A stretch of DNA of 64,000 bases from Nitrosarchaeum sp. (GCA_965223865.1 OZ245020.1:160001-224000), one strand, 5' to 3'. Positions 32,937 to 52,953 are shown, counted from the stretch's first letter. Program-made: numbers and translations. Notes: generated by a model from the letters alone, not told the origin.

Positions 32937-33011
32937 TGGGCCCACGGGGATTTGAACCCCGGATCTTCGCCGTGTAAGGGCGACGTCATAACCGATCTGG
33001 ACTATGAGCCC
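32937..33011 (-). tRNA. tRNA-Val(TAC)
   Basis: Reverse complement GGGCTCA...TGGGCCCA; TCGCC-CT-TAC-AC-GGCGA anticodon arm; GGTTCAAATCC. Confidence 0.96.
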
Positions 33012-33090
33012 AGAAACCTACCTTGTTAAAAACCATTTAAACTTTGAGACGATAAACAATCTAAAAATTTGATTACTATTTGGAAAGGTT

Positions 33091-34107: not shown

Positions 34108-34161
34108 CAAGTTTTTAATCCAATGCTTAATAGATGGCCGATAATTTTTTCTTGATATATC

Positions 34162-35577: not shown

Positions 35578-35581
35578 TTGA

Positions 35582-35677
35582 GTGTAAGAGGCGTTACCGA
35601 TTTTCATCAGTAGCACCGCCGTGGGTTTGTTCTTGGACCTTTATCTAGATTCAGCCCGGCGTTACCCAAAACACGCG
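35582..35677 (-). ncRNA. Candidate structured non-coding RNA
   Basis: GC-rich intergenic island; minus-strand UACUGAU-GAAA-AUCGGUA hairpin, CGCCG/CGGCG stem, two ACA triplets, TATAAA at 35699-35694. Confidence 0.55.
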
Positions 35678-35728
35678 ATAATTGTAATTGTGATTTATAG
35701 TATTTAGAGTTGATCTATATAGATCCAA

Positions 35729-35935
35729 TCACATACGTTCAGCTAAATACCACAAAAGAATTCCCAAACCGATTATTGCATACCACTTGAAGTTTTTCTT
35801 GTTCATGAAAATGTTTGGTGAGGCTAATTCTTCATCCTTGTATGTAGCAAACCTAATTTTTCTCATTTCAAAACCCTGACCAACCAGACCTATTATTAGA
35901 AGGGCAATCGCTGGAAACCCCAAGAACCATTCCAT
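35729..35935 (-). CDS. Small membrane protein
   Basis: MEWFLGFPAIALLIIGLVGQGFEM...KWYAIIGLG. Confidence 0.75.
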   Translation of the reverse strand: MEWFLGFPAIALLIIGLVGQGFEMRKIRFATYKDEELASPNIFMNKKNFKWYAIIGLGILLWYLAERM

Positions 35936-36033
35936 GCTAAAAGTGGTATTTTCATTGAATATGTAGTTTGCAGGTTTTAGTAAAGGTATTTTCAAAGATA
36001 ATTCTTTAAATTGGTAGAGTTTTTTTGTGTCTT

Positions 36034-36948: not shown

Positions 36949-36989
36949 ATTTCAAGAAGTTTTTTACCTCTAAATGTTCTCATTTTATC

Positions 36990-37169
36990 ATGGAATCATG
37001 CTCAACTGGTGATGCTCAAGAGATTTGTTGGTTTTGCAGAAAGGGACGCCACGAAGATTGTATGAAAGAAATTCCAACAGATGGGAGATCTGATGGACCA
37101 CATGACTGTACATTTGATACAAAGCTGATACCATGTAAGTGTCAACACAAGACAGTTAGTAACAATTAG
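36990..37169 (+). CDS. Small Cys/His-rich metal-binding protein
   Basis: CWFCRKGRHEDC...HDC...CKCQH. Confidence 0.65.
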   Translation: MESCSTGDAQEICWFCRKGRHEDCMKEIPTDGRSDGPHDCTFDTKLIPCKCQHKTVSNN

Positions 37170-37189
37170 AATAGTTTGGGAAAGAAATC

Positions 37190-37744
37190 GTGAGTTATGA
37201 TAAGGAATTTTGGGACAAATATGCTTCTAAAAATGAAGAAAAATACAATGAAGAATTTGCAAAGTTTGTAAGAGATTTGGCAATATCGCTTCGTTGTAAC
37301 AGCGTACTTGAAATTGGATGCGGGACCGGAATTGATTTAAGATTATTTCCTGAATCTTTTCAAATTTATGGAATGGATTTAAATGATAAGGCACTTGATA
37401 TTGCAAAACAAAAACTTCCTTCGGGTAAATTCAAAAAAGCTACAATTACAGATATTCCATTTGAGGATTCTTCAGTAGATTTTGTTTTCACTCATCAATT
37501 GTTAAACTATCTTGATGACCAAACCCTAGAGAAAGGAATTTCTGAAATGTACAGAGTTACTGGAAAATATATTATGAACTGCGAAAAGTTTGAAGAGTCT
37601 GAAAAACAAATTAGTAAAAATCAAAAATATAGAAATATGAAACAAAGATGGATGGACTATAAGGTAAAAATTGTTAGTAATGTTGACATGCATGAAGAAA
37701 TTGATCCTGATAAAACTAGATTTACATTACTCAAGAAATTATAA
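37190..37744 (+). CDS. Class I SAM-dependent methyltransferase
   Basis: VLEIGCGTG, IPFEDSSVDFVF. Confidence 0.9.
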   Translation: MSYDKEFWDKYASKNEEKYNEEFAKFVRDLAISLRCNSVLEIGCGTGIDLRLFPESFQIYGMDLNDKALDIAKQKLPSGKFKKATITDIPFEDSSVDFVFTHQLLNYLDDQTLEKGISEMYRVTGKYIMNCEKFEESEKQISKNQKYRNMKQRWMDYKVKIVSNVDMHEEIDPDKTRFTLLKKL

Positions 37745-37885
37745 AATAGCTACTTTGTAAGATATTTTCCCAATAATTTTGAGATTTTCTATTTTAGGAT
37801 AAAACCATTTCAAAATTTTTTAAATAAAATAATTTAAAGAAATTTTTTGGAAAGATCTATAAACATAATCCAAATCTAATCTATC

Positions 37886-37969
37886 ATGACAAATAATTGG
37901 TGGAAAGGAATGCCAAAAGAGATTGAAATGGATTTAGAAATTTTATCAGAGTTTGAATCATTGAAATAA
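37886..37969 (+). CDS. Putative 27-aa leaderless micro-protein
   Basis: MTNNWWKGMPKEIEMDLEILSEFESLK; TATAAA at 37858-37863. Confidence 0.4.
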   Translation: MTNNWWKGMPKEIEMDLEILSEFESLK

Positions 37970-38032
37970 TTTATAAAATTATTTTTTAAAAATTAATAAA
38001 ATGAAAATAAATAATCATAAATCCAAAAATAT

Positions 38033-38470
38033 TTAATTTATCCTCATTAGGATTTGATCACATATTCGTCTCATCTCTGAATCTGAACTTTGGCTAGAAA
38101 TTTTTACTAGATCAGAATTAGTGATTATTCCTACTATTTTTTTATCTTTAATTACGGGAAGTTTGTGAATATTGTGAATTTTCATCAATTCTGCGGCTTC
38201 CCAAATGGTGTCACTTGGATCAATGGTAATTAGTGGCGTTGTCATTATGTCCTCAACTGGATTTAAAAGACTAACTCCCATTACTGCGTATCGTCTAACA
38301 AAATCTCTTTCTGTGATTATGCCTATGGGTTCATCATTTTTAGTTACTAAGATACTTCCTATATTGGCCTCATCCATCTTCTTTGCAGCATTTTTTATCG
38401 ATGAAGATTCTTCGATAGTAATTACATTTTTTTCCATAAAATCATCAACAAAAACATCTTCTCCTGACAT
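38033..38470 (-). CDS. CBS-domain protein
   Basis: Two CBS repeats (GIITERD, LPV..GIITNSD). Confidence 0.92.
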   Translation of the reverse strand: MSGEDVFVDDFMEKNVITIEESSSIKNAAKKMDEANIGSILVTKNDEPIGIITERDFVRRYAVMGVSLLNPVEDIMTTPLITIDPSDTIWEAAELMKIHNIHKLPVIKDKKIVGIITNSDLVKISSQSSDSEMRRICDQILMRIN

Positions 38471-38797
38471 TACGTGTTTTTGTTTTCATTTAGATGTTAA
38501 AAGAATCATCAAGAATTTCAAAATTGATAATTAAATATTATTAAACAATCTCAAAAATACTATTTTTAAATAAAGAATTCAGGTTGTTACTTCTCTGAAT
38601 TTAGTTTGTTTTCAGATTTTTATCAATAATTTCAATATGAATTGCTCTGCAAAGAAAGAAGATGCTAATGATAGTGATTTTTGAAGTGTAAATCAGTATT
38701 GCTTCTTTAATTTATTGTTAAAAATGGTGTGAAGAATTAAAGCTAAAACAACATGCAATAGACTAATACCACTTAAGAAAGAAGATTCCAAGAAAAT

Positions 38798-39613
38798 ATG
38801 ATGGTAAAAAAATACAAGCCAATCATTTCATACAGACTAAGAGAAATTCCCATAAAGGAAATTAAAATTTGGAAGGAGGCACAGGCCAGAAAACTAGACA
38901 GAGAGGGAATATCTGAACTTGCAAAATCAATAAAAAATGAAGGATTGTTAAATCCACCACTTGTACAAAAGCAGGATAAAAATACGTATTTGCTAATGTC
39001 AGGTCAAAGACGACTTGCTGCCATGAAGCGTTTAGGTGCAAAAAAGATCCCAGTTCATTTACTTACCAAAAAAACAGAATATGATCTAGAGAATGCAAAA
39101 GCAGCGTCTGTTATAGAAAATATTCACAGAAATGACATGAATCATAAGGATATTGCGGAGGCCTGTAAGTTTTTGACAGAGCAAGTTGGTAAATCAGCAG
39201 CGGCAAGATCAATGGGAATGTCAATGCCTACATTAAAAAAATACTTGGGATTTGCTGGTGTTCCTGACAACTTAAAGTCGTTAGTGCCCAAAATGATTTC
39301 AAGAGATGAAATGACTAAACTTTACTTTGTTGTACCAAATATTACCAAGGCGCAAAAAATTGTGCAGAAAATATCAAATTTTGATTCCAATCTCCGTAAA
39401 AAATACATTACTGCCCTTATGCGTTCACCAAAATCATCTCACGCTAAATTGTTACAACGTGCAAAAGCAATGCAAATAAAACAAAATGTATCCATTCACT
39501 TATCAAAAACTGCAGCAAAGAAGCTTGCAAGAGAATCAAACAAACAAGACATTACAATTGATGAGATGGCTGCTAAAATAATATCTACTTATCTAAAACG
39601 TAGAAAAAGATAG
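38798..39613 (+). CDS. ParB/Srx N-terminal domain protein with HTH
   Basis: ELAKSIKNEGLLNPPLV, SGQRRLAA, ENIHR. Confidence 0.87.
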   Translation: MMVKKYKPIISYRLREIPIKEIKIWKEAQARKLDREGISELAKSIKNEGLLNPPLVQKQDKNTYLLMSGQRRLAAMKRLGAKKIPVHLLTKKTEYDLENAKAASVIENIHRNDMNHKDIAEACKFLTEQVGKSAAARSMGMSMPTLKKYLGFAGVPDNLKSLVPKMISRDEMTKLYFVVPNITKAQKIVQKISNFDSNLRKKYITALMRSPKSSHAKLLQRAKAMQIKQNVSIHLSKTAAKKLARESNKQDITIDEMAAKIISTYLKRRKR

Positions 39614-39891
39614 AACGAAGTAATTTCAATTATAAAAATATACAAAGATTCAAGTGATTCTAATGATGTGAAAATAAACAACATTACTCATTTTGTCTTT
39701 CAAAAAACTACTAAACAATAAATTCAAAATCTTTAATTTGTAAGAAGAGAAGGTGATATGTCGAACACAATTCGGCTGGTGGACGGGTTATGATTAGGTA
39801 AAGACCTGGTTATTACTTGAAATTCATTATCAAATATATTCAAATCATAATCCTAGATTTGTACCTTTTTTGTACAAAGATAGATCTTGAT

Positions 39892-40635
39892 TCAGAGCAA
39901 TATCTCATTTTCAGAGTATTGTGGATTTTTTTTAGGAATATCAAAAATTTTCAGAGATTCCAAATATTCAAGATGTTTTGAGGTTGATTTGAGATCTCCA
40001 AAAGAGACCATTATTCTGTCATTATGTTCAGGGACGTATTTAGAAATATCTGAAAGATATCTTTCTCCATTAACATAAAAAACGAGAAATTTATTATCTT
40101 CAGTACAAAATCTACCATTATTGACCGATGAATTATAGTTGTTTATTATTATGCAGTTTGGTGTAACTTTCATTTCCAATGATGTGAACAGCATCTCTAA
40201 TGGAACTCCAGTTGCATGTCTATGAATTAGATACGGATTGTGATTCTCAAAGTGGATGTATTTACTTGACATCTGAAATTGTTTCAGACCAAAGTTTAAT
40301 TGTACATCATCTATAAAAATTGCAATTGCAGCATGTGCGTGGTCACTTCCATATTCTCCAATATTATATTGATTCTTCAAACTTCTCTCAGGATCTAATT
40401 GTATTGCATTTTGAATTATTTTTGAATCAATCTCATTTTGGTTAATAAAATAATATGAAAAGAAACTCAAGGTAATAATTACAAAAGATATTGCTATTAT
40501 TACAAATACTCTGTTTGTTGAATTAGATTGGATTGGTTCTGTATCAAAATATTCTAAATTACTCTCCTGAATACGACCAGGTAGGCTGTAATCTGAAAAG
40601 TCCTTAGGAATAGTTTTGTTATCATCTTCAGGCAA
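39892..40635 (-). CDS. Membrane-anchored hypothetical protein (HAH/IHFE/IHRH)
   Basis: TM helix then His-rich motifs and YVNG. Confidence 0.75.
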   Translation of the reverse strand: MPEDDNKTIPKDFSDYSLPGRIQESNLEYFDTEPIQSNSTNRVFVIIAISFVIITLSFFSYYFINQNEIDSKIIQNAIQLDPERSLKNQYNIGEYGSDHAHAAIAIFIDDVQLNFGLKQFQMSSKYIHFENHNPYLIHRHATGVPLEMLFTSLEMKVTPNCIIINNYNSSVNNGRFCTEDNKFLVFYVNGERYLSDISKYVPEHNDRIMVSFGDLKSTSKHLEYLESLKIFDIPKKNPQYSENEILL

Positions 40636-40730
40636 CAGTTAATCCACAAAATTTAATTCTATAAATTTCCTAGACATCCTAGAATATTGAATCTTTTAAA
40701 ATTTGGATCAATTTTGTTTCAAAATATTAA

Positions 40731-40744
40731 AGCGGGTCTAGAGG
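40731..40744. repeat. att direct repeat (copy of tRNA-Lys 3' end)
   Basis: Identical to 50201-50214. Confidence 0.85.
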
Positions 40745-40918
40745 TCTGCATGCTGCCAGCGGTTTCTAAGAATTGGCTCTCATTATAATATAGACAGTAT
40801 AATTTTAAAACATATTGAAGGGTGCGAATCCTTTCAGATTTGAGCTTAATTTCGACTCAATTTTCAGGGTTCAAATTTGATTGGTTTGCACACCAAATAC
40901 TGTTTACCGAGTATTGGT

Positions 40919-42130
40919 TTAGTCGATTCTTTGAGATTCTGAGATTTTCCAGCAGTGATCATAAGTAAACAAATCAACACCACCAAGTCTGTCAATCCAT
41001 TTAGGAACTACTTCATCAGTGCATTGTTGTGTTATTGTATCAGCATAGATTTGGAACACTAGCCAAGGATTAGAGAATCCAACTTCTTGTCCTATTGCCA
41101 TAAAAGATACTTCTTGGTTGGCTTTAGCTGCACTAGCTTGAATGTCTTGGAAGTATTCTTTTTGGATTTGAACATCTTCAGGAGTTCCAAGACGTGTCAA
41201 GTGTCCTCCAACTAATATATCAAAGTCATATTCTAGAACTTTGTCATGTGCTGCAAGAAATTCTGGAACATCTTGTGCCATTGCCAAATCTTTGAATGGT
41301 GTCCATCCAGGGAAGATTACATCAATTAACATCAGAACTTTTTGGTTTGGAGCATAGATGAAGATGTTTCCTGGTTCATGCATTGGTCCATGATATGCCA
41401 ATTCTAATCTTTGAGTTCCAACTTCAAGCGTGTAAGTATCCTCAAATGTTACAGTTGGTATTGGTCTATTAGGATCATTTCTTTTTGAAAGCGTGTCAGC
41501 TGCTTCTTGATGTGCTATGTATACTACATCATCAGGAAACATGTTCATTGCTCCTACATGATCATTGTGAGTATGGCTGTAAATTACATGAGTAATTGGT
41601 TCTTCAGTAACTTCGGCAATTGCTTTGAGATAGTTTTCTCCAATTGATGGAGGAGCATCAACTACAATAACTCCTTTTCCAGTTGTAAGAAACATTGCCT
41701 GGTATGCACCTTCAGTAACCCAGTAAAGTCCATCTTTGATTTCTTCAACCAAATATCCTTTGGAGTAATCAATTTGAGGACCTATTGATGTTTCAGGAAG
41801 TGGTGCTGCTGTTCTCATCTTTTCAGGATGTACCTCAAACATTGAGGCTAAAACTTGCATATTTGCAGAGTCTTCAAGAATTGTTCCCCATCCACGTTCA
41901 ACTAAAGCAGATGCAGTGGAGGGAGTCACACATGCAATTCTTCCATGAGTGCTTTCCATCCAAATTTTGTCAACACAAATTGGAGAGGAATCAGCATTTA
42001 CATCTAAGATAGAATTTGAGAAAATGATTCCTGATGTTAAAATTAACAATGACAAAAACACGTAATCAGATTTCAAACTATTTGAAATTGTGTTTAGTAT
42101 CTTAAAAGTCAATTCTTCCCATCTCCCCAT
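40919..42130 (-). CDS. Secreted MBL-fold metallo-hydrolase
   Basis: YSHTHNDH, H..GN, VGGH; signal peptide and ACVTP...ERGWG module; start uncertain. Confidence 0.88.
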   Translation of the reverse strand: MGRWEELTFKILNTISNSLKSDYVFLSLLILTSGIIFSNSILDVNADSSPICVDKIWMESTHGRIACVTPSTASALVERGWGTILEDSANMQVLASMFEVHPEKMRTAAPLPETSIGPQIDYSKGYLVEEIKDGLYWVTEGAYQAMFLTTGKGVIVVDAPPSIGENYLKAIAEVTEEPITHVIYSHTHNDHVGAMNMFPDDVVYIAHQEAADTLSKRNDPNRPIPTVTFEDTYTLEVGTQRLELAYHGPMHEPGNIFIYAPNQKVLMLIDVIFPGWTPFKDLAMAQDVPEFLAAHDKVLEYDFDILVGGHLTRLGTPEDVQIQKEYFQDIQASAAKANQEVSFMAIGQEVGFSNPWLVFQIYADTITQQCTDEVVPKWIDRLGGVDLFTYDHCWKISESQRID

Positions 42131-42998
42131 TTTGAAAATCCTTGATTGCTTGCTGTAATTCTTCTTCAGTATTCATCACAAATGGACCGTATCGTTTTAC
42201 TGGTTCTCCAATTGGAGTTCCCCCTAACAAAAGTAATTCCAAAGATTCTGTTGCGTCACTAGGGTTAGAGAAAGTAATCTCGTTTCCATTGTTTTCAAAG
42301 AATACAGCTTGTTCCTTTTTTGCAAGTTTTTGTTCAATACCAAATAATCCCTGACCTTGTGCAATGTATGCAAAGGTGTTGAAATTATTTGGAATTTCTT
42401 GTTTAACTTGAGCTCCTGGTTGCAATGAAAAATGCAAATACATTATGGGAATTTTAGTATCAATTACTGCCTTTTTTCCCATTGATTGACCAGCAATTAC
42501 CTTTACACGAACTTTACCGTCTTTACTTTGAGAGACAGGAATCTTATCTGATGGAATCTCTTGATAACGTGGCTTTGTCATCTTATCTTTTTTTGGTAAG
42601 TTAACCCATAATTGGAATCCATGTAGTCTCCCACCTTTTTGTGCAAATTTGTTTTCTGGCATCTCAGAATGAACAATACCAGATCCTGCAGTCATCCATT
42701 GCACATCTCCAGAATGAAGTTTACCTGAATGTCCTTTGGAGTCTTTATGCTCAAAAGAACCATCAATTACGTATGTTACAGTCTCAAATCCGCGATGAGG
42801 ATGTGCTGAGGCTCCTTTTGCTTCTCCTTTTTCTAATATTACAGGTCCCATCTCATCTAATAACAAGAAAGGATCAAAATCTCTTAAAGCATAATTTGGG
42901 ATTGGTCTATGTACAGTAAAGCCATCGCCTTCAAGAGTAGTTTTAGCAGTAACTATCTCTGAAACATTTCTTTGGTTGGATTTCTGAACTTGTGTCAT
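42102..42998 (-). CDS. Pirin-family protein
   Basis: DPFLLLDE, HPHRGFETVTY, QWMTAGSGIVHSE, GFQLWVNLP, GPFVMNT. Confidence 0.96.
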   Translation of the reverse strand: MTQVQKSNQRNVSEIVTAKTTLEGDGFTVHRPIPNYALRDFDPFLLLDEMGPVILEKGEAKGASAHPHRGFETVTYVIDGSFEHKDSKGHSGKLHSGDVQWMTAGSGIVHSEMPENKFAQKGGRLHGFQLWVNLPKKDKMTKPRYQEIPSDKIPVSQSKDGKVRVKVIAGQSMGKKAVIDTKIPIMYLHFSLQPGAQVKQEIPNNFNTFAYIAQGQGLFGIEQKLAKKEQAVFFENNGNEITFSNPSDATESLELLLLGGTPIGEPVKRYGPFVMNTEEELQQAIKDFQNGEMGRIDF

Positions 42999-43073
42999 GA
43001 GAAAAATTACGTATTTTATTATATAATCAGGCTGTCTACTTTGTATTGCAAAGCTTACCCCTAGGAGATTATC

Positions 43074-43616
43074 ATGCCAACTAAAAATACAGAGACTGCT
43101 TCGTTTAGGTTGGATTCAGATAGTTTAGAGAAGCTCAGAAAAGAAGCTGAAGACAACGATTTGAGTCTCAATCAATTGCTAAATCAAGTAATTGGAAATC
43201 ATGTGAATTTTCGCTCTGTTGCAAAATCAGCTGGTTTTATGACAATCCCAAAACCTGTTCTCAAAAGAATCATGGGAAAATTCTCTGAAGAGGAAGCAAG
43301 AGAAATCGGAAGAGAACATTCTGAAAAAGATGCAGAATCTATTCTTTGTATGCTTAGAAATGAATTCAATGTAGATGATTTTCTAGACACAATGGAATAT
43401 TGGGTCAAGGATGCAGGTTTTTCAATTAGACATGACGTTGAAAATGATATTCACAAGTATGTAATTCAGCATGAACTTGGAAAAAACTGGTCATTATACA
43501 TGTCAGAGTTTATCAGCCAAACAATAGAAAAAATGACTCGAAGAAAAGTAGAATCACGAATTACAGACAATACAGTTGCATTTACTGTCGATAAATCAAA
43601 AGTGGTTGAAGGATAG
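43074..43616 (+). CDS. Ribbon-helix-helix regulator with C-terminal sensor-like domain
   Basis: TASFRLD...LRKEAE..SLNQLLNQV RHH; IQHELGKNWS; divergent from pirin. Confidence 0.75.
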   Translation: MPTKNTETASFRLDSDSLEKLRKEAEDNDLSLNQLLNQVIGNHVNFRSVAKSAGFMTIPKPVLKRIMGKFSEEEAREIGREHSEKDAESILCMLRNEFNVDDFLDTMEYWVKDAGFSIRHDVENDIHKYVIQHELGKNWSLYMSEFISQTIEKMTRRKVESRITDNTVAFTVDKSKVVEG

Positions 43617-43897
43617 GCTCACAGGCCAATAGTCGTTTTGCAAATATTGGCATAATAATCACTGCTTGTTGTTAATTGAAAATCTGTGATTCTACTTTCT
43701 TAAATTTGATTTTTGAACCAGAAACTGTAATGTTGGTGAAGAAAAAAGGCCTACTCCTATAATCACAGCACAACATGTATGGGGTATAGATAAGGACCCA
43801 AAAAGTGGTATAACGTTACAGTTTATAGATTCATACTTGTTTGGAAACTAATGAAAGTTTAGCTATACAGTTTTACGCATGGTTTATGGATTAGAAT

Positions 43898-44233
43898 CTA
43901 CTCAAATTGTAAATTCCATTGCTTTGACCAACGTCTTATTAGAAAAATTGCAAACAATATCGTTCCTATTTGAACTCCTACTGAAAATATGAATTGGTTA
44001 TCATCTACTCCATAGTAAAAAATCATGACATTTGTGAATCCTTCCACCAAATCTTCATCTTCTGTGGGCAAAAAAACAGATGATGCAATTGATACTGGTA
44101 TTGCTACAACAAGAATCATTATCATCAGATATTTTCGTAGTTTTTTTACTCGATATGCTGCATACATGTCAAGAATCGGAATTATGCAGAAAATTGTTTG
44201 AATCGTCAGGTCTACTTTTCCTTTTGCAGGCAT
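43898..44233 (-). CDS. Hypothetical membrane protein
   Basis: QTIFCIIPILD.YA.YRVKKLRK; 3 TM. Confidence 0.75.
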   Translation of the reverse strand: MPAKGKVDLTIQTIFCIIPILDMYAAYRVKKLRKYLMIMILVVAIPVSIASSVFLPTEDEDLVEGFTNVMIFYYGVDDNQFIFSVGVQIGTILFAIFLIRRWSKQWNLQFE

Positions 44234-44350
44234 GGTTTTATGAAAATATGATGATTAATTATACTTGCTACTCAAAAACAGTTCAGGCCTATGTGGAATT
44301 GAACTCAAAAAGAGGATACTTTATGAATATCTAATTTGGAGACGAATAAA

Positions 44351-44998
44351 ATGAAATTTTTTATTATGATACTTCTTGCAATTTTGGTTTCAGGTACTTT
44401 TCTTATATCTAACATAAGTGCAGAAAAACAATTAGAACTCTTGGTAAGTCCAATCATCCCAAAACTTGTCCATTCTGATGAACCTGTTGATTCTCTGATA
44501 ATTCGAGATGTTAACAACAGCCCTGTTTGGGATGGTGCACTATATCCGATTGTTGGGATTGATTTTGTTGAAGGAAATGCATATCACATTATTGCAAAAA
44601 AATCTGATGATTTTCAATTTCCTGAAAATAAAAAATATGAATTGATTGAAATTAAACATATTTTCAAACCTCATAAACCATATTCTTGGAAGAGTCTTTG
44701 TGCTCCTGGGTATCTCATAGATCCTCATGGCGATGATTGTGTGTTTGTTTTTAGGTGTAGTGAAGATGCATATCCAGGAAGACCATGTATCATAAATTGG
44801 ACAGAACAAGATTATCTTAGACCGTTACACCAACAAAAAGTAGGAATATTGCCCGAAGATACAATTTGTTTGGAAAATTTACAATTAATTATTGACAATG
44901 ACAACACTCCGGTTTGTGTAAAACAATCCTCTGTTGAAAAATTGTTGGAACGTGGTTTCATACTTGGAAAAAATAACAATGATTCACCATACGATTAG
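44351..44998 (+). CDS. Secreted hypothetical protein (array member 1)
   Basis: MKFF signal peptide; C-terminal PVCVK..SVEKLLERG module. Confidence 0.75.
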   Translation: MKFFIMILLAILVSGTFLISNISAEKQLELLVSPIIPKLVHSDEPVDSLIIRDVNNSPVWDGALYPIVGIDFVEGNAYHIIAKKSDDFQFPENKKYELIEIKHIFKPHKPYSWKSLCAPGYLIDPHGDDCVFVFRCSEDAYPGRPCIINWTEQDYLRPLHQQKVGILPEDTICLENLQLIIDNDNTPVCVKQSSVEKLLERGFILGKNNNDSPYD

Positions 44999-45006
44999 TC
45001 TAGAAA

Positions 45007-45759
45007 ATGAAAACTAGAGTTCTAATCGTTCTTGGTATAATTTTGGCAGCAACCACTATGACTGCTTTTTTTATTTTTCCTGGTGTTTCCCACTTTGTAT
45101 TAGGCAATGATACTCTGACAAATCAAAATCTGGATGTACATCTGAATGTTACTGGAATCAAATCTCACTATGAAATTGGTGAGCCTATTGCATTTTCTGT
45201 TCAAGTAAAATCACTGGGAAAAACTGTGCCCTGGCCGCAATATCGCATTTACCAAGATTACGTGGACATTTCCTCCGAACCAGTCTATTCCAGAATGTAC
45301 ATGACTCCAATAGAGCCAGAAGACAGACAAAACTCATTTGAATGGAGAGAGAAAACCTGGAATTTTCCTCTAGAGGATGATGACCCAATCAGGTTTTCTG
45401 ATAAAGGAAACTATACTCTCCGTGTAGACGTTGATGCAAAAAAACATGCTTTGGTTGATTTTCAGATAGTTGATTACAAAAATCCAGAAAGAGATGCCAA
45501 ACTGGATGCTGGATACAAGCTGTATCCTGGTGTTGGTTGGGTACCTCCTGATGAACTAGAAAATCAACAGCCGCTCTACAGGGTCAATCCAGACAATCCT
45601 GGAGAACTAATTTTAGATGTTGATGCGATGCAACAAGTTCAGGAGATTTTAGATTATTGTGGTCCTCCAAAATATCAGGGATTTGCATATGGTCTGGAAT
45701 ATTCCAATGGAACGCATGTCATTGACAACAATTCTTGCGAATGGAGAAAAATAAAATGA
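45007..45759 (+). CDS. Secreted hypothetical protein (array member 2, MKTR start)
   Basis: MKTRVLIVLG signal; Ig-like GIKSHYEIGE segment. Confidence 0.8.
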   Translation: MKTRVLIVLGIILAATTMTAFFIFPGVSHFVLGNDTLTNQNLDVHLNVTGIKSHYEIGEPIAFSVQVKSLGKTVPWPQYRIYQDYVDISSEPVYSRMYMTPIEPEDRQNSFEWREKTWNFPLEDDDPIRFSDKGNYTLRVDVDAKKHALVDFQIVDYKNPERDAKLDAGYKLYPGVGWVPPDELENQQPLYRVNPDNPGELILDVDAMQQVQEILDYCGPPKYQGFAYGLEYSNGTHVIDNNSCEWRKIK

Positions 45760-46148
45760 AAACCAGCAAGCTGATCATGACAGGAATTTTGGGAGTCATA
45801 CTGTATGTTGTTGTGATGTTTTCTTTTCTGATATTTGTTGCCTCGCCGCTCCAGCAACAGGCAATGATGAAATACGAATCAACTGATCTTGCAAAACAAT
45901 TTCTGGAAACCTATCCTGAGTCGGGAATAGTGGCAACTTCTGGCGATTTTTTTGAGAAGCATACGAGTTTTACATATTCTAAAAATGCCAGATGGGTTTC
46001 GTTGACATTTTCTGAGGGAATTGATGGTCAAAAAACAGTCTACAAGTGTGAAAGAATCACCTCCTCACAGGAACCAGCAGAGATATTCTACTTCGAGGAC
46101 CCCTCTCCTGAAACCATCAAAAACAACGTATGTGGAGAATATGATTAG
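45756..46148 (+). CDS. Membrane-anchored hypothetical protein (array member 3, MKTS start)
   Basis: ATGA overlap with previous stop. Confidence 0.75.
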   Translation: MKTSKLIMTGILGVILYVVVMFSFLIFVASPLQQQAMMKYESTDLAKQFLETYPESGIVATSGDFFEKHTSFTYSKNARWVSLTFSEGIDGQKTVYKCERITSSQEPAEIFYFEDPSPETIKNNVCGEYD

Positions 46149-46151
46149 AAA

Positions 46152-47228
46152 ATGAAAACCAGACTCTTGATACTCCTTGCATCTGTTGGATTGTTGGTTT
46201 TGATTCCACACGCATTTGCCTCCGAATCATTCCATGGAACCTCAAGTTTTGAGAATGCCCCTTTAGAACTAACCCCGGGAAAACCGACAAAGTTTGAAAT
46301 AAAATTCCGATACACAGAGGGCCCATACGCCCTAAGCAATCTTTCTCCAATAATTGATGTCAGTCCTGCCAGTGCCATCCCAACGGTTCGAATTGATACA
46401 GAACCGCTTGAAGGAATTACACAAGGTCAAGTTGCAAGGATTCCTGTAACAGTTACAGTAAACCCAAACATAGACCATGAAAAGATATTTCTCAGCATTT
46501 CTTTTACTGGGAATCATTTTTCTAGTCGCTCTGATGCATTTTACAAAAGCTCTTGGACAGATTCAATTGCATTTGATATTGCTCCAAAAGACAAGGCGGA
46601 TATTTTTGTAGACTATGAAATCATTCCATGGGAAGATTTTGAATATGAAATCATAGGAAAGGGCGCAATATTCAAAAATGATCTAATGGGACTGGCAATT
46701 CTGGAGGCAGGAACACAATATTTTGCTATCGTAAAGGCTGAATTTACAGAATCAAGTTTCGGGGACAAACCAACAGCAGTTGATGCAACAGCAGGATACG
46801 CAATCAAGAAAGGTGACCACATACCACGCCCGCCAATGCATGAAAATGCAACAGATAAGGAGCATATGGAATTTTCAATGAAACAGCAAAAACTAATTGA
46901 AGAATTTCCTAAACAAAGTTCAATAGAAGACTCGTATGACTTTGTAGTTGACGTTAAAAACCCATTTTACATCAAATTTCCATTTGTAGTTGAGGAATCC
47001 GGACAGTACACAAGACAGTTCTATAGGACAACTCATATCTTTGAAGGTCCTAGTGGATCTGCTATGGGCGGTCTTGTTGTAGTTGACAAATTCAGCAAGG
47101 CAGTTGATGAAAACAGCGTATGCAAAAATGAAGATTTTAGGCGCCTGATAAAACATGATTATTCCACAGTAGTATGTGTTACGGGAGAAACGGCTTGGAA
47201 ATTAATAGGGCGTGGGTGGGGAATATAA
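46152..47228 (+). CDS. Secreted hypothetical protein (array member 4, MKTR start)
   Basis: MKTRLLILL..AFA signal; C-terminal VCVTGETAWKLIGRGWG module. Confidence 0.8.
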   Translation: MKTRLLILLASVGLLVLIPHAFASESFHGTSSFENAPLELTPGKPTKFEIKFRYTEGPYALSNLSPIIDVSPASAIPTVRIDTEPLEGITQGQVARIPVTVTVNPNIDHEKIFLSISFTGNHFSSRSDAFYKSSWTDSIAFDIAPKDKADIFVDYEIIPWEDFEYEIIGKGAIFKNDLMGLAILEAGTQYFAIVKAEFTESSFGDKPTAVDATAGYAIKKGDHIPRPPMHENATDKEHMEFSMKQQKLIEEFPKQSSIEDSYDFVVDVKNPFYIKFPFVVEESGQYTRQFYRTTHIFEGPSGSAMGGLVVVDKFSKAVDENSVCKNEDFRRLIKHDYSTVVCVTGETAWKLIGRGWGI

Positions 47229-47836
47229 AAACTAGAACTCAAATCATATTACTTTCAATTATTTTCATTGTAGGTTCTGTATCGATACTTTATGCAGTTC
47301 AGATTCCTCACTATTCTTTGGAGATTAAAGGAATGAAAGATACGTACCATATTGGGGAACAATACTCATTTTACTATACATTATCAGGATTTGGACACAC
47401 ATGTCATTCTTGGATCGTGTCTTATCCTGATCAGAATGGAGAGTTTAATCAAGCTGGAGAAGCTATTGATTGTTCTAGACCTACCAACAAAGAACTTTCT
47501 TATGATTCTAGAAAAGACTCTAGAATATTTTCATCCAAAATTCCAGAAATTGAAGGCAAATATAATGTTACAGTATCACTAGAAGATTTAGAACCTGTAA
47601 TTTATGAATTCAGAGTTATATCTTCCTCTCAGAATGCCTATGAATTAGATGAAGCGTTGTGTATAGGAGGAAGAGGTTACATTGTTAATGACGAATGTGA
47701 ACGAATTGGAAAATATGATTCTGTTACAGGACTTCCAATAGTTGAAAACAAAGAACAATGTGACATGTTAGAGGGCAAGTGGGATGAAAAACAAAAAACT
47801 TGTGATTCAAAATATGGAAAAGAAAATGAAAATTAG
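47225..47836 (+). CDS. Secreted hypothetical protein (array member 5; start codon ATA instead of ATG)
   Basis: ATAAAAACTAGA = (I)KTRTQIILL; Ig-like GMKDTYHIGE; ends ENEN*. Confidence 0.65.
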   Translation: MKTRTQIILLSIIFIVGSVSILYAVQIPHYSLEIKGMKDTYHIGEQYSFYYTLSGFGHTCHSWIVSYPDQNGEFNQAGEAIDCSRPTNKELSYDSRKDSRIFSSKIPEIEGKYNVTVSLEDLEPVIYEFRVISSSQNAYELDEALCIGGRGYIVNDECERIGKYDSVTGLPIVENKEQCDMLEGKWDEKQKTCDSKYGKENEN

Positions 47837-48029
47837 ACTCTTGATTGTTGCAGGGATTGTTATTTTCTTGGTTGGGATTTCTGTATTGGCATATGAGATA
47901 TTTGGAGATTTGAATTTTAAACTTAGTTCAGACATAGAAGTTTCAATAATATTTTATGTGATAGTTCCGGGATTGGCAATTTCTGGCATAGGCATTGTTT
48001 TAGAGTTTGCAAAAAAGGAGTGTGATTAA
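47826..48029 (+). CDS. Small 2-TM protein (array member 6, MKIR start)
   Basis: GAAAATGAAAATTAGACTC junction. Confidence 0.7.
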   Translation: MKIRLLIVAGIVIFLVGISVLAYEIFGDLNFKLSSDIEVSIIFYVIVPGLAISGIGIVLEFAKKECD

Positions 48030-48491
48030 TGAAAACATATCCTATCCCTATAATTATCTGTTACTGTTCTAGTGGCATATTTTTCTATTTCATCAACAGC
48101 TATGCAAGAAAATAGTTTATCAAAACAATGCGACATTCCATATGATGTAAATTTTATAGAAAGAAGAGGAGTACCTTCAGCACCCAATGATGGAAAGCCA
48201 CACTATTCAATTGCAGAAGAATTTTCAATTTTCTATACTGTTCCAATTGGAGAATTTAGTGTAGATGATGTCTCTCATTCTTTAATATTGAAACCAGTAC
48301 CAACTTCGCATGGTTACATCATAATGTGTGATCCTTTACCTGTTTTAGAAAAAAGATTTGAGACAAAAATGCATGGATTGTTCGTTCTTGTAGACAACGA
48401 AGAGATTGAACCCAATTTGGTAAATAATGTGTTAAGAATTGATGTTAGTGGCAACACTAGCGTGGAGATTATAGGATTCAGGTTTGTTTGA
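48029..48491 (+). pseudogene. Secreted hypothetical protein (array member 7), MKT start out of frame with body
   Basis: TAATG overlap MKTYPIPI; body ORF 48072-48491 is 1 nt out of frame; VLVDNEE motif. Confidence 0.55.
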
Positions 48492-48560
48492 AAATGAAAA
48501 CTATGATTTTTGTCATTTCAATTATTCGCGAAATTAAAAAAATAAAAAAGAACAGATATG

Positions 48561-49610
48561 TTATTCCTCTACTATGAACAAACCTATCATCCCTGCATCT
48601 GCATGGCCAACCACATGGCAATGGAACAACCAAATTGCGGGTTTGTCGGGCTTGACAATGAATGACTCTAGCGTTCCCTGAACTAGCGGAAATGTCTGCG
48701 AAGTTATTGTAGTACCTCTCTCGTTTGTGCTTGAAATCATCTTGTTTCCGTGCAGATGAAATGAATGAATTTGCTCACCAAGATTTGTAACGTGAAACTC
48801 AACTGTTTCTCCAACCTTTGCCTTGTAGACTGGCAGTGTATAATTGAACTGCTCAACAACGCCATCCAGTCCTTCTTCTGCAAAGATTTCTTCAAGAGCC
48901 TTTTCTCCGCCTGGTACACCCATTCCGTTCATGATATAGTATGGCACGGGTCCCTTCTCCATTCTTTCAACGTCATGGCCTATTTCTGCCATCACGATTG
49001 GAATGTGTCTGTCAATGTATGGTCTTGGGGGATTTCTTTCGATTATGATATTTCCATAAAGACCCTGCAAAATATGGTCCTTGATTCCAAGGCCCTTAGA
49101 TGCTGCATGGTCATGGAAAAATGTCGTTCCCCAATCATCTACATTGTATTCATACGTCCATTCCCCTCCTGGTGGAATCATTGAGCCTGCTCCAACTCCC
49201 GTGATTACGTTTACTGGGGATCCGTCATGTTTAGGATCATAGTCACTCATGTGGGCATGGAAGCTGTGAGTCACGTCATGATTGTTGATTACCCTGACTC
49301 GCAGCAGGTCTCCTTGGCTTGCCAATAGAGTCGGTGCGGGCACTGTTCCGTTGTATGTCCAAGCGTGCCAGACTGCGTTGTCTGATACTTGAATGTCTGT
49401 CTGCTCAATTATCAACGTATACTCCCTGACTGGCTGTTCCTCAGCTTTGGCAACCTGTGGATGTAAATCAGATACGCCTTGCGTCTGAACATCAGAGACA
49501 TTATGTGTTTCTGCGTTTAGGTTTGGCAAGAACTGAATGTTTCCTGTTGCTGCTACAATTAAAATTGCAAGCAGGATTGGAATTCCTATCAAACCAATTT
49601 TTTTCTGCAT
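48561..49610 (-). CDS. Two-domain multicopper oxidase
   Basis: Signal peptide; WTYNGTVPAP, HSFHAH, FHDH; HSFHLHG, WLFHCHVVGHADAGM. Confidence 0.92.
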   Translation of the reverse strand: MQKKIGLIGIPILLAILIVAATGNIQFLPNLNAETHNVSDVQTQGVSDLHPQVAKAEEQPVREYTLIIEQTDIQVSDNAVWHAWTYNGTVPAPTLLASQGDLLRVRVINNHDVTHSFHAHMSDYDPKHDGSPVNVITGVGAGSMIPPGGEWTYEYNVDDWGTTFFHDHAASKGLGIKDHILQGLYGNIIIERNPPRPYIDRHIPIVMAEIGHDVERMEKGPVPYYIMNGMGVPGGEKALEEIFAEEGLDGVVEQFNYTLPVYKAKVGETVEFHVTNLGEQIHSFHLHGNKMISSTNERGTTITSQTFPLVQGTLESFIVKPDKPAIWLFHCHVVGHADAGMIGLFIVEE

Positions 49611-49804
49611 AATGACTTTCTCTGTGTTGTTAAATTAAATCAAAAGTTGTTTCTCCGTTTTAGCAATTAACAGATGGATTCTTATGGGATTTCATATCTC
49701 TGAACTGTAACAAACTTTTCTTAGTTCTTGATCCTGCGAATAAACTAAACAATGAAACCTGAACTGATGTCCATGTTGTCTAATTTAGATTCAAATTCTT
49801 ATAT

Positions 49805-50152
49805 TTACAATAGCATATTATCGTCTAGTTTTCCTATTATTTCATTTCTTTTCTCATTATCGTTAATTCGTTTGATAAATTCTTTAATTGATCTTCTGAC
49901 ATATTCTGCAATTTCTCCACGTTCTACTCTTTCTTTATGAAATGACAGAAACCTCATCACATTTGCTGTAACCCAACTGTTTCCGTTCTTTTTTGATTTT
50001 GAGATGAACTGTTTTGCTTGCTCTGCTAGGTTGCCTTGCAGTTCTAGAAAATCAAAAAAGTTTCGCATCCTTCTTTTGTATCGGTCTTTAGTAGCATCGC
50101 TCTTCATTGCATACAGGAACAATTCCAATGGTTCTGATTCGTATTCTGCCAT
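49805..50152 (-). pseudogene. Truncated tyrosine integrase (N-terminal domain only)
   Basis: FLYAMKSDATKDRY.RR...FFDFL...ERVERGEI resembles thaumarchaeal integrase N-termini; next to tRNA att; no catalytic R-HxxR-Y domain. Confidence 0.75.
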
Positions 50153-50202
50153 TTTTCTGCCTTCTGTTACACTTGGAACCAATAAAAGAACCACTAAAGG
50201 AG

Positions 50203-50276
50203 CGGGTCTAGAGGGATTCGGACCCTCGACAGCAGGATTAAGAGTCCTGTGCGCTACCTGGCTGCGCCATAGACCC
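50203..50276 (-). tRNA. tRNA-Lys(CTT)
   Basis: Reverse complement GGGTCTA...TAGACCCG; CAGGA-CT-CTT-AA-TCCTG anticodon arm. Confidence 0.96.
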
Positions 50277-50335
50277 ACGAAAATAAAACTGCCTAGAGTT
50301 GTTATTAACCTTAAGATTGTAAAATAAAGGAAAAT

Positions 50336-50938
50336 TTAGTTCTGAGCTTTAGCTTCAATTTCACTGTACTTCTCTAGAATTGCTGTAAGTGCAGTTGAAA
50401 CTGGTACGTCATTCATTTTTTTCTTTTCGGCAAGAAGTTTCTGGTATGCATCTAGTGTGATATATACTGGAATTGAACCATTTCCTTCAAGAAGTCCTCT
50501 AACGTTATAGAGTGCTGTTTCCATTCCTCTTTCAGCAGACTTGGCAAACTTTGCCTTATCCATAATTGCTCCTAATGGACCAAATGGCATTTCATAATCC
50601 ACTGTCATAGTAACTCGCGTAAGATTATCACCAAGTGATTTGAATTCATTGGTTATTTGCCAGTGTTTGAATGGTCCTTCAATTTGCTTTGCAGAAATCT
50701 TTTCATTTCGAACAAATTCGATTGTTTCACAGTCCCATTCTAGGCGTTTACCGCTAAAGTCACCAATAATTCTAAATGTTGTACCAACACCCATTCCTTC
50801 TTTGATATCCATTGGAACTACTGTCATTCCTACTGCATCAGTTTTAATTTGATCAGAAACATGCTCTGGTCTTGCAAAGTAGGTAAAAACATTCTCTACG
50901 GGGGTTTTAACATCGATTGATTTTGTTACGACGGTCAA
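50336..50938 (-). CDS. SRPBCC/polyketide cyclase-family protein
   Basis: SIDVKTPVENVF, EGPFKHW, VDYEMPFGPLG. Confidence 0.87.
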   Translation of the reverse strand: MTVVTKSIDVKTPVENVFTYFARPEHVSDQIKTDAVGMTVVPMDIKEGMGVGTTFRIIGDFSGKRLEWDCETIEFVRNEKISAKQIEGPFKHWQITNEFKSLGDNLTRVTMTVDYEMPFGPLGAIMDKAKFAKSAERGMETALYNVRGLLEGNGSIPVYITLDAYQKLLAEKKKMNDVPVSTALTAILEKYSEIEAKAQN

Positions 50939-51033
50939 CGATTCAATGTCTTGCCAATAAGGATTTAAAGGTTTTGAAGATTTTCCTATGTAAATTGATT
51001 AACACTATATTATTCTTAGAATATGGTTAATTT

Positions 51034-51555
51034 GTGAAAAAACTGCGATCAACTATTTTTTTGGTTTTTTTAGCACTAACTTCAATTCCAATATTTTCAG
51101 ATGCATATGGCCACTCTATGTTTAATTCAGCAGAGCAATATTATGGTGGATATAGAGTTCAAGTTGCAACATTACCAGAATTCCCACAGATTGATGAAAA
51201 GTCTCAGATTTTAGTAAGGATAACTGATAGAGATTTGGAGGAAGTTGATCGCTTTACAATGGGAATTAGATTTTTCTATAATGATCAACAAATTGATGCA
51301 TTTCAACCAAGTTCCTTTGAAGGAGGGCACTCAGATCTTGATTATGTTTGGAGAAATTCAGGAAATCATATTGTGAAAATAGATTTGTATGATATGGCGG
51401 GAAATCCTGGCATTCTTACCTATACCTTTAACATGGGTACACAGAGTCCTTTTGGAGTAATTTTTTTCATATCGATAATTATCGGTGTTTTGACATTAAC
51501 AGTTGTTGTAATTTACGTCTACATTCCAAAGAAATTCAAAAAAGCTAGATCTTAG
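51034..51555 (+). CDS. Exported protein with C-terminal TM anchor
   Basis: Signal peptide ending AYG-H; C-terminal TM and basic tail. Confidence 0.75.
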   Translation: MKKLRSTIFLVFLALTSIPIFSDAYGHSMFNSAEQYYGGYRVQVATLPEFPQIDEKSQILVRITDRDLEEVDRFTMGIRFFYNDQQIDAFQPSSFEGGHSDLDYVWRNSGNHIVKIDLYDMAGNPGILTYTFNMGTQSPFGVIFFISIIIGVLTLTVVVIYVYIPKKFKKARS

Positions 51556-51988
51556 ATTTTATAGGCATTTTTGCAATTCTAAAAGCAAACAAGGTTGTTA
51601 AAAGTACCATTGAGAATAACAAAATACCTATCCCTAAATGGATTGCAACAAGTACAGCATGAAGCTTTAGATCAATTACTAATGCACCTAATGTGATTTG
51701 TGTAATTACAAATATCGTTGCAAGAGTACTCGTAATTTTGATTTTTTTGTCTGCATTCTTGTTAATCCAACTAGCTACCATAGTTGCAATTACTAGTGTA
51801 CCAGTAGTGGCAGCTGCTAGCCTATGTATCCATTCAATTAGATATTCTTCAGAAGGCATTACTCCATTTGGGCATAGAGGCCATTCTGGACAGGTTAGTC
51901 CAAGTCCTGCAGCTGAGATATATCCCCCAAGAAACATTAACGAATACAAAATAATCATTGTTGATAAGGCAAGGTATTGAATTGCCAA
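51545..51988 (-). CDS. ctaA: Heme A synthase (short CtaA/Cox15)
   Basis: GLTCPEWPLC, EWIHR, HLG; end of cox operon. Confidence 0.88.
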   Translation of the reverse strand: MAIQYLALSTMIILYSLMFLGGYISAAGLGLTCPEWPLCPNGVMPSEEYLIEWIHRLAAATTGTLVIATMVASWINKNADKKIKITSTLATIFVITQITLGALVIDLKLHAVLVAIHLGIGILLFSMVLLTTLFAFRIAKMPIKSKI

Positions 51989-51990
51989 AA

Positions 51991-52953
51991 TTATTCAACT
52001 ATGAAACTGCCTTGCATCCCTTGTAATGCATGGCCTGGAACAGTACAGATGTAGTAGTAATTACCTGGTGCACCAGCTGTAAACGTGACTTCGCCACTTT
52101 CATTTGCTTTAAGTGGACTTGATGGTGAAGCAATTTCAGAACCCCATAATACATTACCAAAGTCTTCAGGATTTGCAACTACTCCAAATGCATGAAATGA
52201 TTTGCCTAAATTAGCAGAGGTAACTGTTACTGAATCTCCAGAATTTACACGGATTTCAGGATTGTTTCCTTCTTCTCCTGGCAATGCATTAAATGCCAAA
52301 GTTCTAAAGTCATCAGATTCTACAAAGTCTAGCTGAAAGCTGTGAGATACTCCTGTTGGGGCTGCAGCTTCTGCAGATCCACCTCCTGCTTGTGCAGGAC
52401 CTACAATAATTTCACCTACCATGCCTTGTTCTCTGTGTCCGGGAACGGTACAGATGTAGTAGAATGTTCCTTCTTCTGTTGGAACCCATTCAGATGTTCC
52501 ACTCTCACCTGCTTTTAATGGACTCGATGGACTTGCTACTTCACTTCCTGCAAAGATCCCACCAAATCCTTCCTCATCAGCAGTTACACCAAATGCGTGA
52601 AATGATACTCCACCATTTTCTACATTAAAGATTATCTTATCACCAACATTTGCATTAATTGTTGGATTACTTCCTTCTTCTCCAGGTAATGCATTAAAGG
52701 TTAATACTCTAAAGTCAGAAGACTCAACAAACACCAAGTCTGCGGTAATTGTCTTACCTGTAGCAACTGCAGGTGCACCTGTTTCTTTTGCCCCACTCAT
52801 CATTGCTACAACTGGGGCAGGTTCAGAGATCCAGTAATCCCACATACCAAAGAATATGGCACCACCAACTATGCAAATACCTAGCATGATTATCATCATC
52901 TTACCGGTTCTTGCGGTGGTTGTTCTGTAAATTGTATCTGTGTCTTGACTCAT
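51991..52953 (-). CDS. Membrane-anchored double blue-copper (cupredoxin) protein
   Basis: Two H.F...YYICTVPGH..QGM type-1 Cu sites. Confidence 0.92.
   Translation of the reverse strand: MSQDTDTIYRTTTARTGKMMIIMLGICIVGGAIFFGMWDYWISEPAPVVAMMSGAKETGAPAVATGKTITADLVFVESSDFRVLTFNALPGEEGSNPTINANVGDKIIFNVENGGVSFHAFGVTADEEGFGGIFAGSEVASPSSPLKAGESGTSEWVPTEEGTFYYICTVPGHREQGMVGEIIVGPAQAGGGSAEAAAPTGVSHSFQLDFVESDDFRTLAFNALPGEEGNNPEIRVNSGDSVTVTSANLGKSFHAFGVVANPEDFGNVLWGSEIASPSSPLKANESGEVTFTAGAPGNYYYICTVPGHALQGMQGSFIVE

Follow-up and report, generated by a model that had tools for sequence, protein, structure and literature searches.

The 64,000-nucleotide stretch of a Nitrosarchaeum sp. genome analysed here (GCA_965223865.1 OZ245020.1:160001-224000; the window, from genome G000) carries, beside a tRNA-Lys(CTT) gene, a run of accessory genes that lies between two copies of an exact short repeat and ends on the tRNA side in the remnant of a tyrosine recombinase gene. 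An initial annotation, made from the sequence alone, had taken this run for a 9.5-kb element integrated at the tRNA. Comparison with related genomes extends the inserted DNA to 12.2 kb (37985-50200), of which the 9.5-kb unit is the tRNA-proximal part, and makes it probable that the 3' end of tRNA-Lys(CTT) is an integration hot spot in this Nitrosopumilaceae-type archaeon, now holding a composite, immobilised island. The locus is defined by the following features, where ORF stands for open reading frame and att for attachment site.

37886-37969, plus strand: conserved ORF of 27 aa (MTNNWWKGMPKEIE...), chromosomal, flanking the integration site on the left; directly adjoins the 3' end of tRNA-Lys in G005 and G006
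37985-40730, no strand: segment A, inserted DNA of 2.75 kb, probably the older part; absent from the empty sites of G006 and G005, present at the same place in G004 at 92% identity
40731-40744, plus strand: distal att copy, repeating the 3' end of tRNA-Lys; exact 14-bp repeat, with G004 homology ending at 40729
40745-50200, no strand: segment B, the tRNA-proximal island within the bounds of the 14-bp repeat; mosaic accessory cargo and integrase stump
49805-50152, minus strand: integrase stump, whose homology to tyrosine recombinases of ~430-445 aa covers their N-terminal ~84-103 residues and gives way to a divergent tail and a stop; catalytic domain absent
50201-50214, plus strand: proximal att copy, within and forming the tRNA 3' end; exact repeat, ARAGORN
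50202-50276, minus strand: tRNA-Lys(CTT), the integration target; ARAGORN

The direct repeat and the tRNA

The repeat, AGCGGGTCTAGAGG, is 14 bp long and cannot be extended, with 0 extra bases shared on either side. Both exact copies (40731-40744 and 50201-50214) are where they were first annotated, and allowing one mismatch the window contains 2 matches against a mean of 0.00 expected from 100 dinucleotide-preserving shuffles; the two further window matches that appear at up to three mismatches are at chance level (0.96 expected). Across the 2,012,789-bp genome, a search at up to one mismatch returns 3 matches, namely the two exact copies and one with 1 mismatch at C1:89876-89889. This last match belongs to a sequence that is 91% identical to the tRNA-Lys gene, which leaves 40731 as the only copy in the genome outside tRNA sequence.

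ARAGORN calls the tRNA at 50202-50276 on the minus strand, so that the right-hand copy corresponds to the 3'-terminal nucleotides of the tRNA plus one base past the call, and the overlap originally proposed holds. With the stems read by eye, this copy takes in the 3' strand of the acceptor stem, four T-stem bases and a further one to two bases past the end. The tRNA gene is intact, and the part of it that is visible reads identically in G005.

The site in related genomes

The SRPBCC gene on the right flank (50336-50938) and the gene presumed to form the left flank (39892-40635) were located in 40 relatives, and the neighbourhoods from seven relatives were compared with the window by BLASTN. 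Two genomes of the same genus have an empty site. In G006 (84-86% identity), window positions 32936-37747, 37835-37984 and 50195-52427 are contiguous, and the junction consists of the 27-aa ORF, about 20 AT-rich bases and then the tRNA 3' end. In G005, 37978 is joined to 50201 through a 9-base spacer. The 27-aa ORF stands next to the tRNA in both genomes and also lies within the stretch common to the window and G004; it differs in G006 by an in-frame 3-nt indel and is therefore probably a real small gene. As the empty sites join ~37984 to ~50195, the inserted DNA comprises 37985-50200, and the gene at 39892-40635, lying within this 12.2-kb gap, is itself part of the insertion. The empty site predicted in the initial annotation, with that gene adjoining tRNA-Lys, was not found in these relatives, where the small ORF takes its place in G006 and G005.

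Other relatives hold different DNA at the same tRNA. In G003 (same genus), tRNA-Lys(CTT) and the 27-aa ORF are separated by an unrelated 11.6-kb element (L005 958-12538). At its ends stand the copies of a 15-bp direct repeat, TCCCACTAGACCCGC (L005 943 and 12524); this repeat occupies the same tRNA positions as the window repeat within 2 nt, and its distal copy abuts the 27-aa ORF. A full-length recombinase ORF of 491 aa adjoins the tRNA and is whole after integration. The cargo of this element comprises a HerA-type ATPase, a Cas4-like PD-(D/E)XK nuclease, a receiver-domain protein, a type II/III-like DNA methyltransferase, a 740-aa protein with two GHKL ATPase domains, a ParE toxin and a DUF5615 protein, which makes it a candidate defence island of intact appearance.

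In the closest relative, G004 (92-95% identity), homology with the window extends over 32936-40729, breaking off within 2 nt of the outer edge of the repeat, and resumes at 50040 inside the integrase stump; the 4 kb between these breakpoints are unrelated and contain a TFIIB homolog along with an ORF of 239 aa. At the same site G018, from another genus, has about 2.5 kb of unrelated DNA, and G011 and G007 are uninformative, their left sides not being syntenic. Segment B was also searched as DNA against 121 genomes of the family (G000 included). As a block it is absent from every genome except G000, with only pieces occurring elsewhere, and no genome besides G000 carries the same genes contiguously across both repeats, the arrangement that the initial annotation had named as contradicting its proposal.

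Close to the island there is a further variable spot, about 100 bp to its left. On the tRNA-Lys side of the methyltransferase gene (window 37190-37744), G005 (L003 14223-16570) and G018 (L006 13989-16454) have 2.3-2.5 kb of DNA that is absent in G000, G004 and G006.

The integrase remnant and its family

The stump ORF runs for 115 codons on the minus strand, from an ATG at 50152 down to 49805. In a search limited to longer proteins, 19 of 133 candidates were homologous to it at E<=1e-3, most of them 407-445 aa long, and the best, P0001, is 76% identical across 82% of the query, which bears out the integrase fragment reported next to the tRNA. When full-length homologs are used as tblastn queries, residues 1-103 alone find a counterpart in the window, with close identity stopping near residue 84, and no further integrase match at E<0.5 appears anywhere else in the window. 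The integrase content of the island is hence residues ~1-103 of a ~440-aa recombinase, a remnant of about a quarter of its length, in agreement with the decayed state first proposed.

The stump ORF has no match in Pfam, and the catalytic R..HxxR..Y region is missing altogether. Even the full-length members of this family are divergent in model searches: among five of them, one passes the Pfam Phage_integrase model (PF00589; P0017, 28.1 versus 27.1 bits), three fall below the cut-off and one has no match, and P0001 reaches 40.6 bits with the archaeal XerA model, below its cut-off of 220. By eye, P0001 contains HGLRK and later an SYY stretch, which we take to be catalytic residues as in the integrase family at large. 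Elsewhere in the G000 genome the matches are limited to a piece of 52-61 residues (35-38% identity) and another of 195 residues at 25.6%; a close full-length homolog was not found in the G000 assembly, which is 99.98% complete by markers. Given the truncated integrase and the lack of a close full-length copy in the genome, segment B would no longer be able to excise.

The ATG of the stump lies 49 bp from the att at 50201-50214, placing the att outside and upstream of the integrase ORF. This layout, with the tRNA followed after ~50 bp by the start of an integrase reading away from it, is the normal one of the P0001-type family. Matches to P0001 at E<=1e-20 occur in 81 of 201 family genomes, G000 included, and at 15 of 23 loci scanned a tRNA gene stands just upstream on the same strand as the integrase match (14 of 21 if loci L030 and L033, from the unpublished genomes G109 and G095, are set aside). 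The tRNAs at the 15 loci are Arg-GCG (4), Val (4), Leu (3), Lys-TTT (1), Ser (1) and Met (1), with one odd call. The closest full-length integrase in the genome contigs (L037, 69% identical to P0001) is at tRNA-Arg(GCG); its contig has no repeat of at least 10 nt and, beyond the integrase, only weak CBS and WING-49-type matches to the ORFs of the island. Together, the repeat at tRNA-Lys(CTT) and the stump support the view, taken from the start, of a tyrosine integrase targeting the tRNA 3' end.

A comparable remnant occurs in G005 (C1:919531-919764), where an N-terminal-only piece corresponding to residues 1-78 of P0001 at 55% identity forms a 121-aa open frame. Short N-terminal stumps of P0001-type integrases may be common.

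Gene content of the island

Segment A has a GC content of 0.27-0.32, lower than that of B, and encodes three proteins.

38033-38470, minus strand: CBS-domain protein, 145 aa (Pfam CBS, 112 bits)
38798-39613, plus strand: ParB/RepB/Spo0J-family partition-type protein, 271 aa (TIGR00180, 89.1 bits versus a cut-off of 58.45)
39892-40635, minus strand: membrane protein, 247 aa, with one hydrophobic segment (residues 38-65); DUF4430 sub-threshold only

The ParB-type protein is also matched by ParB_N (54.8 bits) and by a ParB-like PHROG family (E 1.4e-26). It is the sole classic mobile-element gene of the island, and lies in segment A, to the left of the 9.5-kb unit. The membrane protein gene has an ortholog in G004 (91%) at the same locus, separated there from the tRNA by the different 4-kb insert.

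Segment B carries the following genes in addition to the integrase stump, MBL standing for metallo-beta-lactamase and RHH for ribbon-helix-helix.

40919-42130, minus strand: MBL-fold hydrolase, 403 aa, with an N-terminal hydrophobic segment (Lactamase_B, 61.2 bits; partial WING-49)
42102-42998, minus strand: pirin, 298 aa (Pirin, 120 bits; Pirin_C, 101.8 bits)
43074-43616, plus strand: probable RHH regulator, 180 aa, divergent from the pirin-MBL pair (PHROG Arc-like repressor, E 1.6e-5)
43898-44233, minus strand: small membrane protein, 111 aa, with two hydrophobic windows; no family match
44336-48491, plus strand: seven same-strand ORFs, termed the 'MKTR array' (44336-44998, 45007-45759, 45735-46148, 46152-47228, 47174-47836, 47784-48029 and 48072-48491); no Pfam family
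48561-49610, minus strand: two-domain multicopper oxidase, 349 aa, with a signal-like N-terminus (Cu-oxidase_3, 85.2 bits; Cu-oxidase_2, 67 bits)

The MBL, pirin and multicopper oxidase assignments of the initial annotation are upheld by Pfam. The RHH regulator it also named is matched weakly, with Pfam RHH_1 (E 0.049) and CopG_antitoxin (E 0.011) both below cut-off, and this RHH-type protein has five paralogs elsewhere in the genome. Identification of the MBL-fold protein as a metallo-beta-lactamase in the sense of a resistance enzyme was considered and rejected, as its scores against the NCBIfam models of beta-lactamase subclasses B1/B2 are far below the cut-offs (at best 67.7 bits versus 750, and 53.9 versus 100 for the core domain).

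The 'MKTR array' had been listed as part of the cargo. An N-terminal hydrophobic segment is present in six of its seven ORFs, whose products are putatively secreted or anchored, judging from these predicted N-termini, and a gene-start region recurs (34 nt in three copies, 14 nt in four). The mutual similarity of the proteins in BLASTP is weak and at the level of the signal peptides (E 0.003-0.01), so that the run does not qualify as a tandem duplication array in a strict sense. The NCBIfam family WING-49 (NF058652.1, cut-off 22) matches two of the ORFs, 44336-44998 (59.7 bits) and 46152-47228 (28.3 bits), and in part the MBL-fold hydrolase (29.7 bits). The protein encoded by 46152-47228 has no counterpart among viral contigs and one, on a 1.4-kb contig, among metagenome contigs. 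The C-terminal part of 44336-44998 has seven further tblastn copies elsewhere in the genome. Beyond the last of the seven ORFs, 48494-48580 contains another 'MKTR'-type gene start (ATGAAAACT...), the fourth copy of the 14-nt motif; the frame it opens has just 28 codons and reaches into the oxidase gene at its 3' end. Because homology to the G006 oxidase region starts at 48533, this short frame may be a recombination scar.

As initially stated, replication, conjugation and capsid genes were not recognised: neither PHROGs (16 ORFs) nor Pfam scans detect a capsid, terminase, replication or conjugation family, and the only PHROG matches are ParB, the Arc-like repressor and two families of unknown function. 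VirB4/VirD4-type ATPases and pilus genes, which would point to an integrative and conjugative element (ICE), were likewise not detected by Pfam or PHROG among the ORFs of 37985-50200. PADLOC reports no defence system in the island, giving three weak matches only, all in the ParB region.

Origin of the composite island

The observations themselves are the repeat, the tRNA beside its truncated integrase gene, the empty sites, the varying occupants among relatives and a cargo that is mosaic; from them we infer a site-specific mechanism, an order of events and a loss of mobility. A tyrosine recombinase of the non-split type, encoded beside its attachment site and reading away from the tRNA, would have recombined the attP of an element with the last ~12 nt of the tRNA and 2 nt downstream. 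The copy brought by the element would now complete the tRNA (50201-50214), whereas the displaced original copy would mark the far end (40731-40744), and the integrase gene would later have been cut to its first ~100 codons. Segment A would be an older insertion inherited jointly with G004. Segment B or a forerunner of it would have landed between A and the tRNA by tandem re-use of the regenerated tRNA site, with the newest arrival next to the tRNA; the observed order of small ORF, A, att, B, and att with tRNA is the one expected from serial use of such a site. The cargo of B is made up of accessory genes that probably circulate among variable loci in the relatives.

Several observations weigh against this account. 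There is no tRNA-like repeat or att copy at the left end of segment A (near 37985-38030), and none at the junction between A and the insert in G004, where the 14-mer occurs once in L004, in the tRNA; both junctions lie within ~2 nt of where an att would be expected to start. An intermediate state with A directly adjoining the tRNA is absent from the relatives examined, so that we infer the independent arrival of B rather than see it. G000 and G004 have 160 bp of the integrase stump in common at 95% identity but not the rest of B, and one integration with later exchange of the cargo is hence no less possible than two independent ones. Base composition provides no clean contrast either, the GC content of B (0.32-0.44) overlapping that of the left (0.33-0.35) and right (0.33-0.42) flanks. 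Finally, modules of B have paralogs or orthologs at loci that are not elements, and part of the cargo may accordingly not have arrived with the integrase.

This last point leads to the alternative that survives best, although it is advanced tentatively: the stump and the 14-bp duplicate may be all that remains of the original element, most of the cargo having been added later and piecewise by recombination at the hot spot. The MBL-pirin-RHH block (40886-43638) is 92% identical in G004, where it lies ~55 kb from tRNA-Lys in a 5.75-kb variable segment whose flanks are conserved on both sides, matching G000 C1:276180-283036 and 288466-295732. G006 has the oxidase module (48533-49752) at 86% identity, on a different contig. 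The orthologs of the oxidase (91% aa identity in G006 and 87% in G086) are both in other genomic contexts, and the G086 gene sits between homologs of two genes that are 9 bp apart in G000. Piecewise addition would also agree with the signal-peptide-like start at 48494, just 28 codons before the oxidase module, and with a stump, but not a cargo, common to G000 and G004. However, the 14-bp copy stands exactly at the outer edge of B, as if the leftmost DNA were the original attP arm; the adjoining 141 bp (40745-40885, from the repeat to the MBL block) match nothing in the 120 other genomes searched and speak for neither reading. Moreover, the thaumarchaeal survey of Krupovic et al. (2019; PMC6563490) describes gene exchange between elements of this class, so that a mosaic cargo would be expected before integration too.

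A second alternative, in which A and B entered together as a single 12.2-kb element, is unlikely. The outer att by the 27-aa ORF would then have been lost, and the copy at 40731 would be an internal relic or secondary site. The empty sites define only the 12.2-kb gap as a whole, and the ParB of segment A would provide the mobile-element function missing from B. Yet G004 has A at 92% identity and other DNA in place of B, with its breakpoint at the edge of the repeat, which argues for A and B as separate units. A tRNA-derived 14-mer inside a single element is unexpected without a second integration, and the GC content of A is below that of B.

It is more improbable still that the island remains mobile, with a second member of this large integrase family excising and moving it in trans while the 115-aa N-terminal fragment helps by binding DNA. 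Such mobility would fit the identity of the two att copies, the open frame that the stump maintains over 115 codons from its own ATG and the wide distribution of the integrase family among related genomes. Against it stand the lack of a close full-length homolog in the G000 genome and the fact that integrases 64-69% identical to P0001 occupy other tRNAs (Lys-TTT and Arg-GCG), suggesting that the target changes quickly. That the repeat is coincidental and the region ancestral, with deletion in relatives, is hardly credible: base composition is not sharply unlike that of the flanks, but the shuffles give 0 chance matches, no additional non-tRNA copy exists in the genome, the repeat occupies the same tRNA positions as that of the G003 element, the stump is in its canonical place, and G003, G005 and G006 all retain the 27-aa ORF beside tRNA-end sequence.

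Relation to known elements

The island is a decayed, composite, tRNA-linked member of a described class, the thaumarchaeal cryptic integrated elements (CIEs; Krupovic et al. 2019, PMC6563490). According to that survey, 74 integrated elements were found in 20 thaumarchaeal genomes, most of them 'cryptic'; their att have a median length of 17 bp and a minimum of 8 bp, tRNA genes make up 57% of the targets, with the 3' part used in all but one of those, and elements with tyrosine recombinases re-use one site. Multicopper oxidase, CBS, CopG/RHH and TFIIB genes are frequent, and ParB-like genes occur in ICEs (PMC6563490). The window island shares with the CIEs a short att, the lack of virus and conjugation genes, and cargo from the frequent families multicopper oxidase, CBS and CopG/RHH; in the position beside the tRNA where those elements encode a XerC/XerD-type integrase, it has the remnant of one and not a working gene. 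As in CIEs, the inserted DNA is absent from the same site in relatives (empty in G006 and G005, otherwise occupied in G003 and G004) and carries no virion, casposase or conjugation genes, and a short direct repeat with the 3' part of a tRNA is present, for segment B only.

The closest published parallels occupy the same tRNA. In the survey's table, the tRNA-Lys(CTT) occupants include NitClo-E1 and the adjoining NitAQ6f-E4 and E5 (Ca. Nitrosotenuis sp. AQ6f), all from Nitrosotenuis, and Nitrosopumilus does not appear in its seven tRNA-Lys rows (PMC6563490). Compared by their published descriptions and att strings, these three elements, like the window island, target the 3' end of tRNA-Lys(CTT), and their att strings (e.g. 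TAGCGGGTCTGGTGGGAT) overlap the same tRNA positions as the window repeat. As described there, two elements also adjoin at one tRNA, the end of E4 being the start of E5 by coordinates, and their size is given as 16-34 kb, versus 9.5 kb (12.2 kb with A) for the window island (PMC6563490). The window island differs from all three in that its integrase is a stump, and from CIEs in that two of the three att copies to be expected are present. The class thereby gains a further example.

Archaeal tyrosine integrases include a pNOB8 type, which is not split on integration, and an SSV type, termed 'suicidal', which is. In layout, as distinct from clade placement, the integrase of the window resembles the pNOB8 type: the att lies outside and upstream of the ORF, so that integration does not split the gene, and the G003 integrase is whole after integration. 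Unlike a pNOB8-type gene, that of the window has been shortened, probably through later decay or recombination and not through integration itself. A self-splitting SSV-type integrase was considered and rejected, the att being 49 bp upstream of the ATG and a C-terminal fragment being absent from the far end and from the rest of the window.

Bacterial genomes contain tRNA-linked 'fitness islands' with degenerate integrases. Like them, the window island is targeted to the 3' end of a tRNA, is flanked by a direct repeat and carries accessory metabolic genes, and it would have grown by serial accretion at one tRNA and been fixed in place by decay of its integrase. It differs from them in its archaeal host, its very short repeat and a divergent integrase family that barely reaches the Pfam threshold.

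Implications for genome comparison

Within the genus, the tRNA-Lys(CTT) site is thus empty in G005 and G006, holds an element with defence genes and a seemingly live integrase in G003, and is occupied in G000 and G004 by two different decayed islands with an older piece in common. For annotation, this means that one multicopper oxidase and the pirin/MBL/regulator unit of this genome belong to flexible, island-borne DNA and not to core metabolism, which matters in the case of the oxidase for inventories of copper enzymes compared between strains of ammonia-oxidising archaea.

A more speculative and rather improbable extension is that tRNA-Lys(CTT) and a few variable loci form a shared exchange platform in the genus, on which small modules move without a recombinase of their own. 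The single multicopper oxidase gene and the regulator-pirin-MBL unit might be such modules, exchanged in a loosely cassette-like manner via leftover att copies or integrase stumps. If so, the breakpoints without att (in G004 and at the left end of segment A) would be footprints of exchange and not random decay.

Other variable loci

A paralogous pair consisting of an RHH-type regulator (36% identity) and an MBL-fold protein (30%) lies at C1:988322-989760 in G000. The G004 copy of the MBL-like gene of this pair, at 94% DNA identity, is located beside the MBL-pirin-RHH block of G004.

The window contains a second variable block (21115-32935), adjoining the 3' end of tRNA-Val(TAC) (32936-33012, minus strand). 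A search for the tRNA-Val end at up to 2 mismatches found no repeat of it for this block, and P0001-type integrases had no match there. It measures 11.8 kb in G000 versus ~1.4 kb in G005, and synteny with G004, G006 and G018 also ends at 32936. In G004, a 49-bp sequence (L009 7485-7533; G004:C1:1533485-1533533) is 92% identical to window 32905-32953, which consists of 18 nt of the tRNA-Val 3' end and adjoining island-side DNA. It lies 1.6 kb from the MBL-pirin-RHH block of G004 and may be the relic of an element targeting tRNA-Val.

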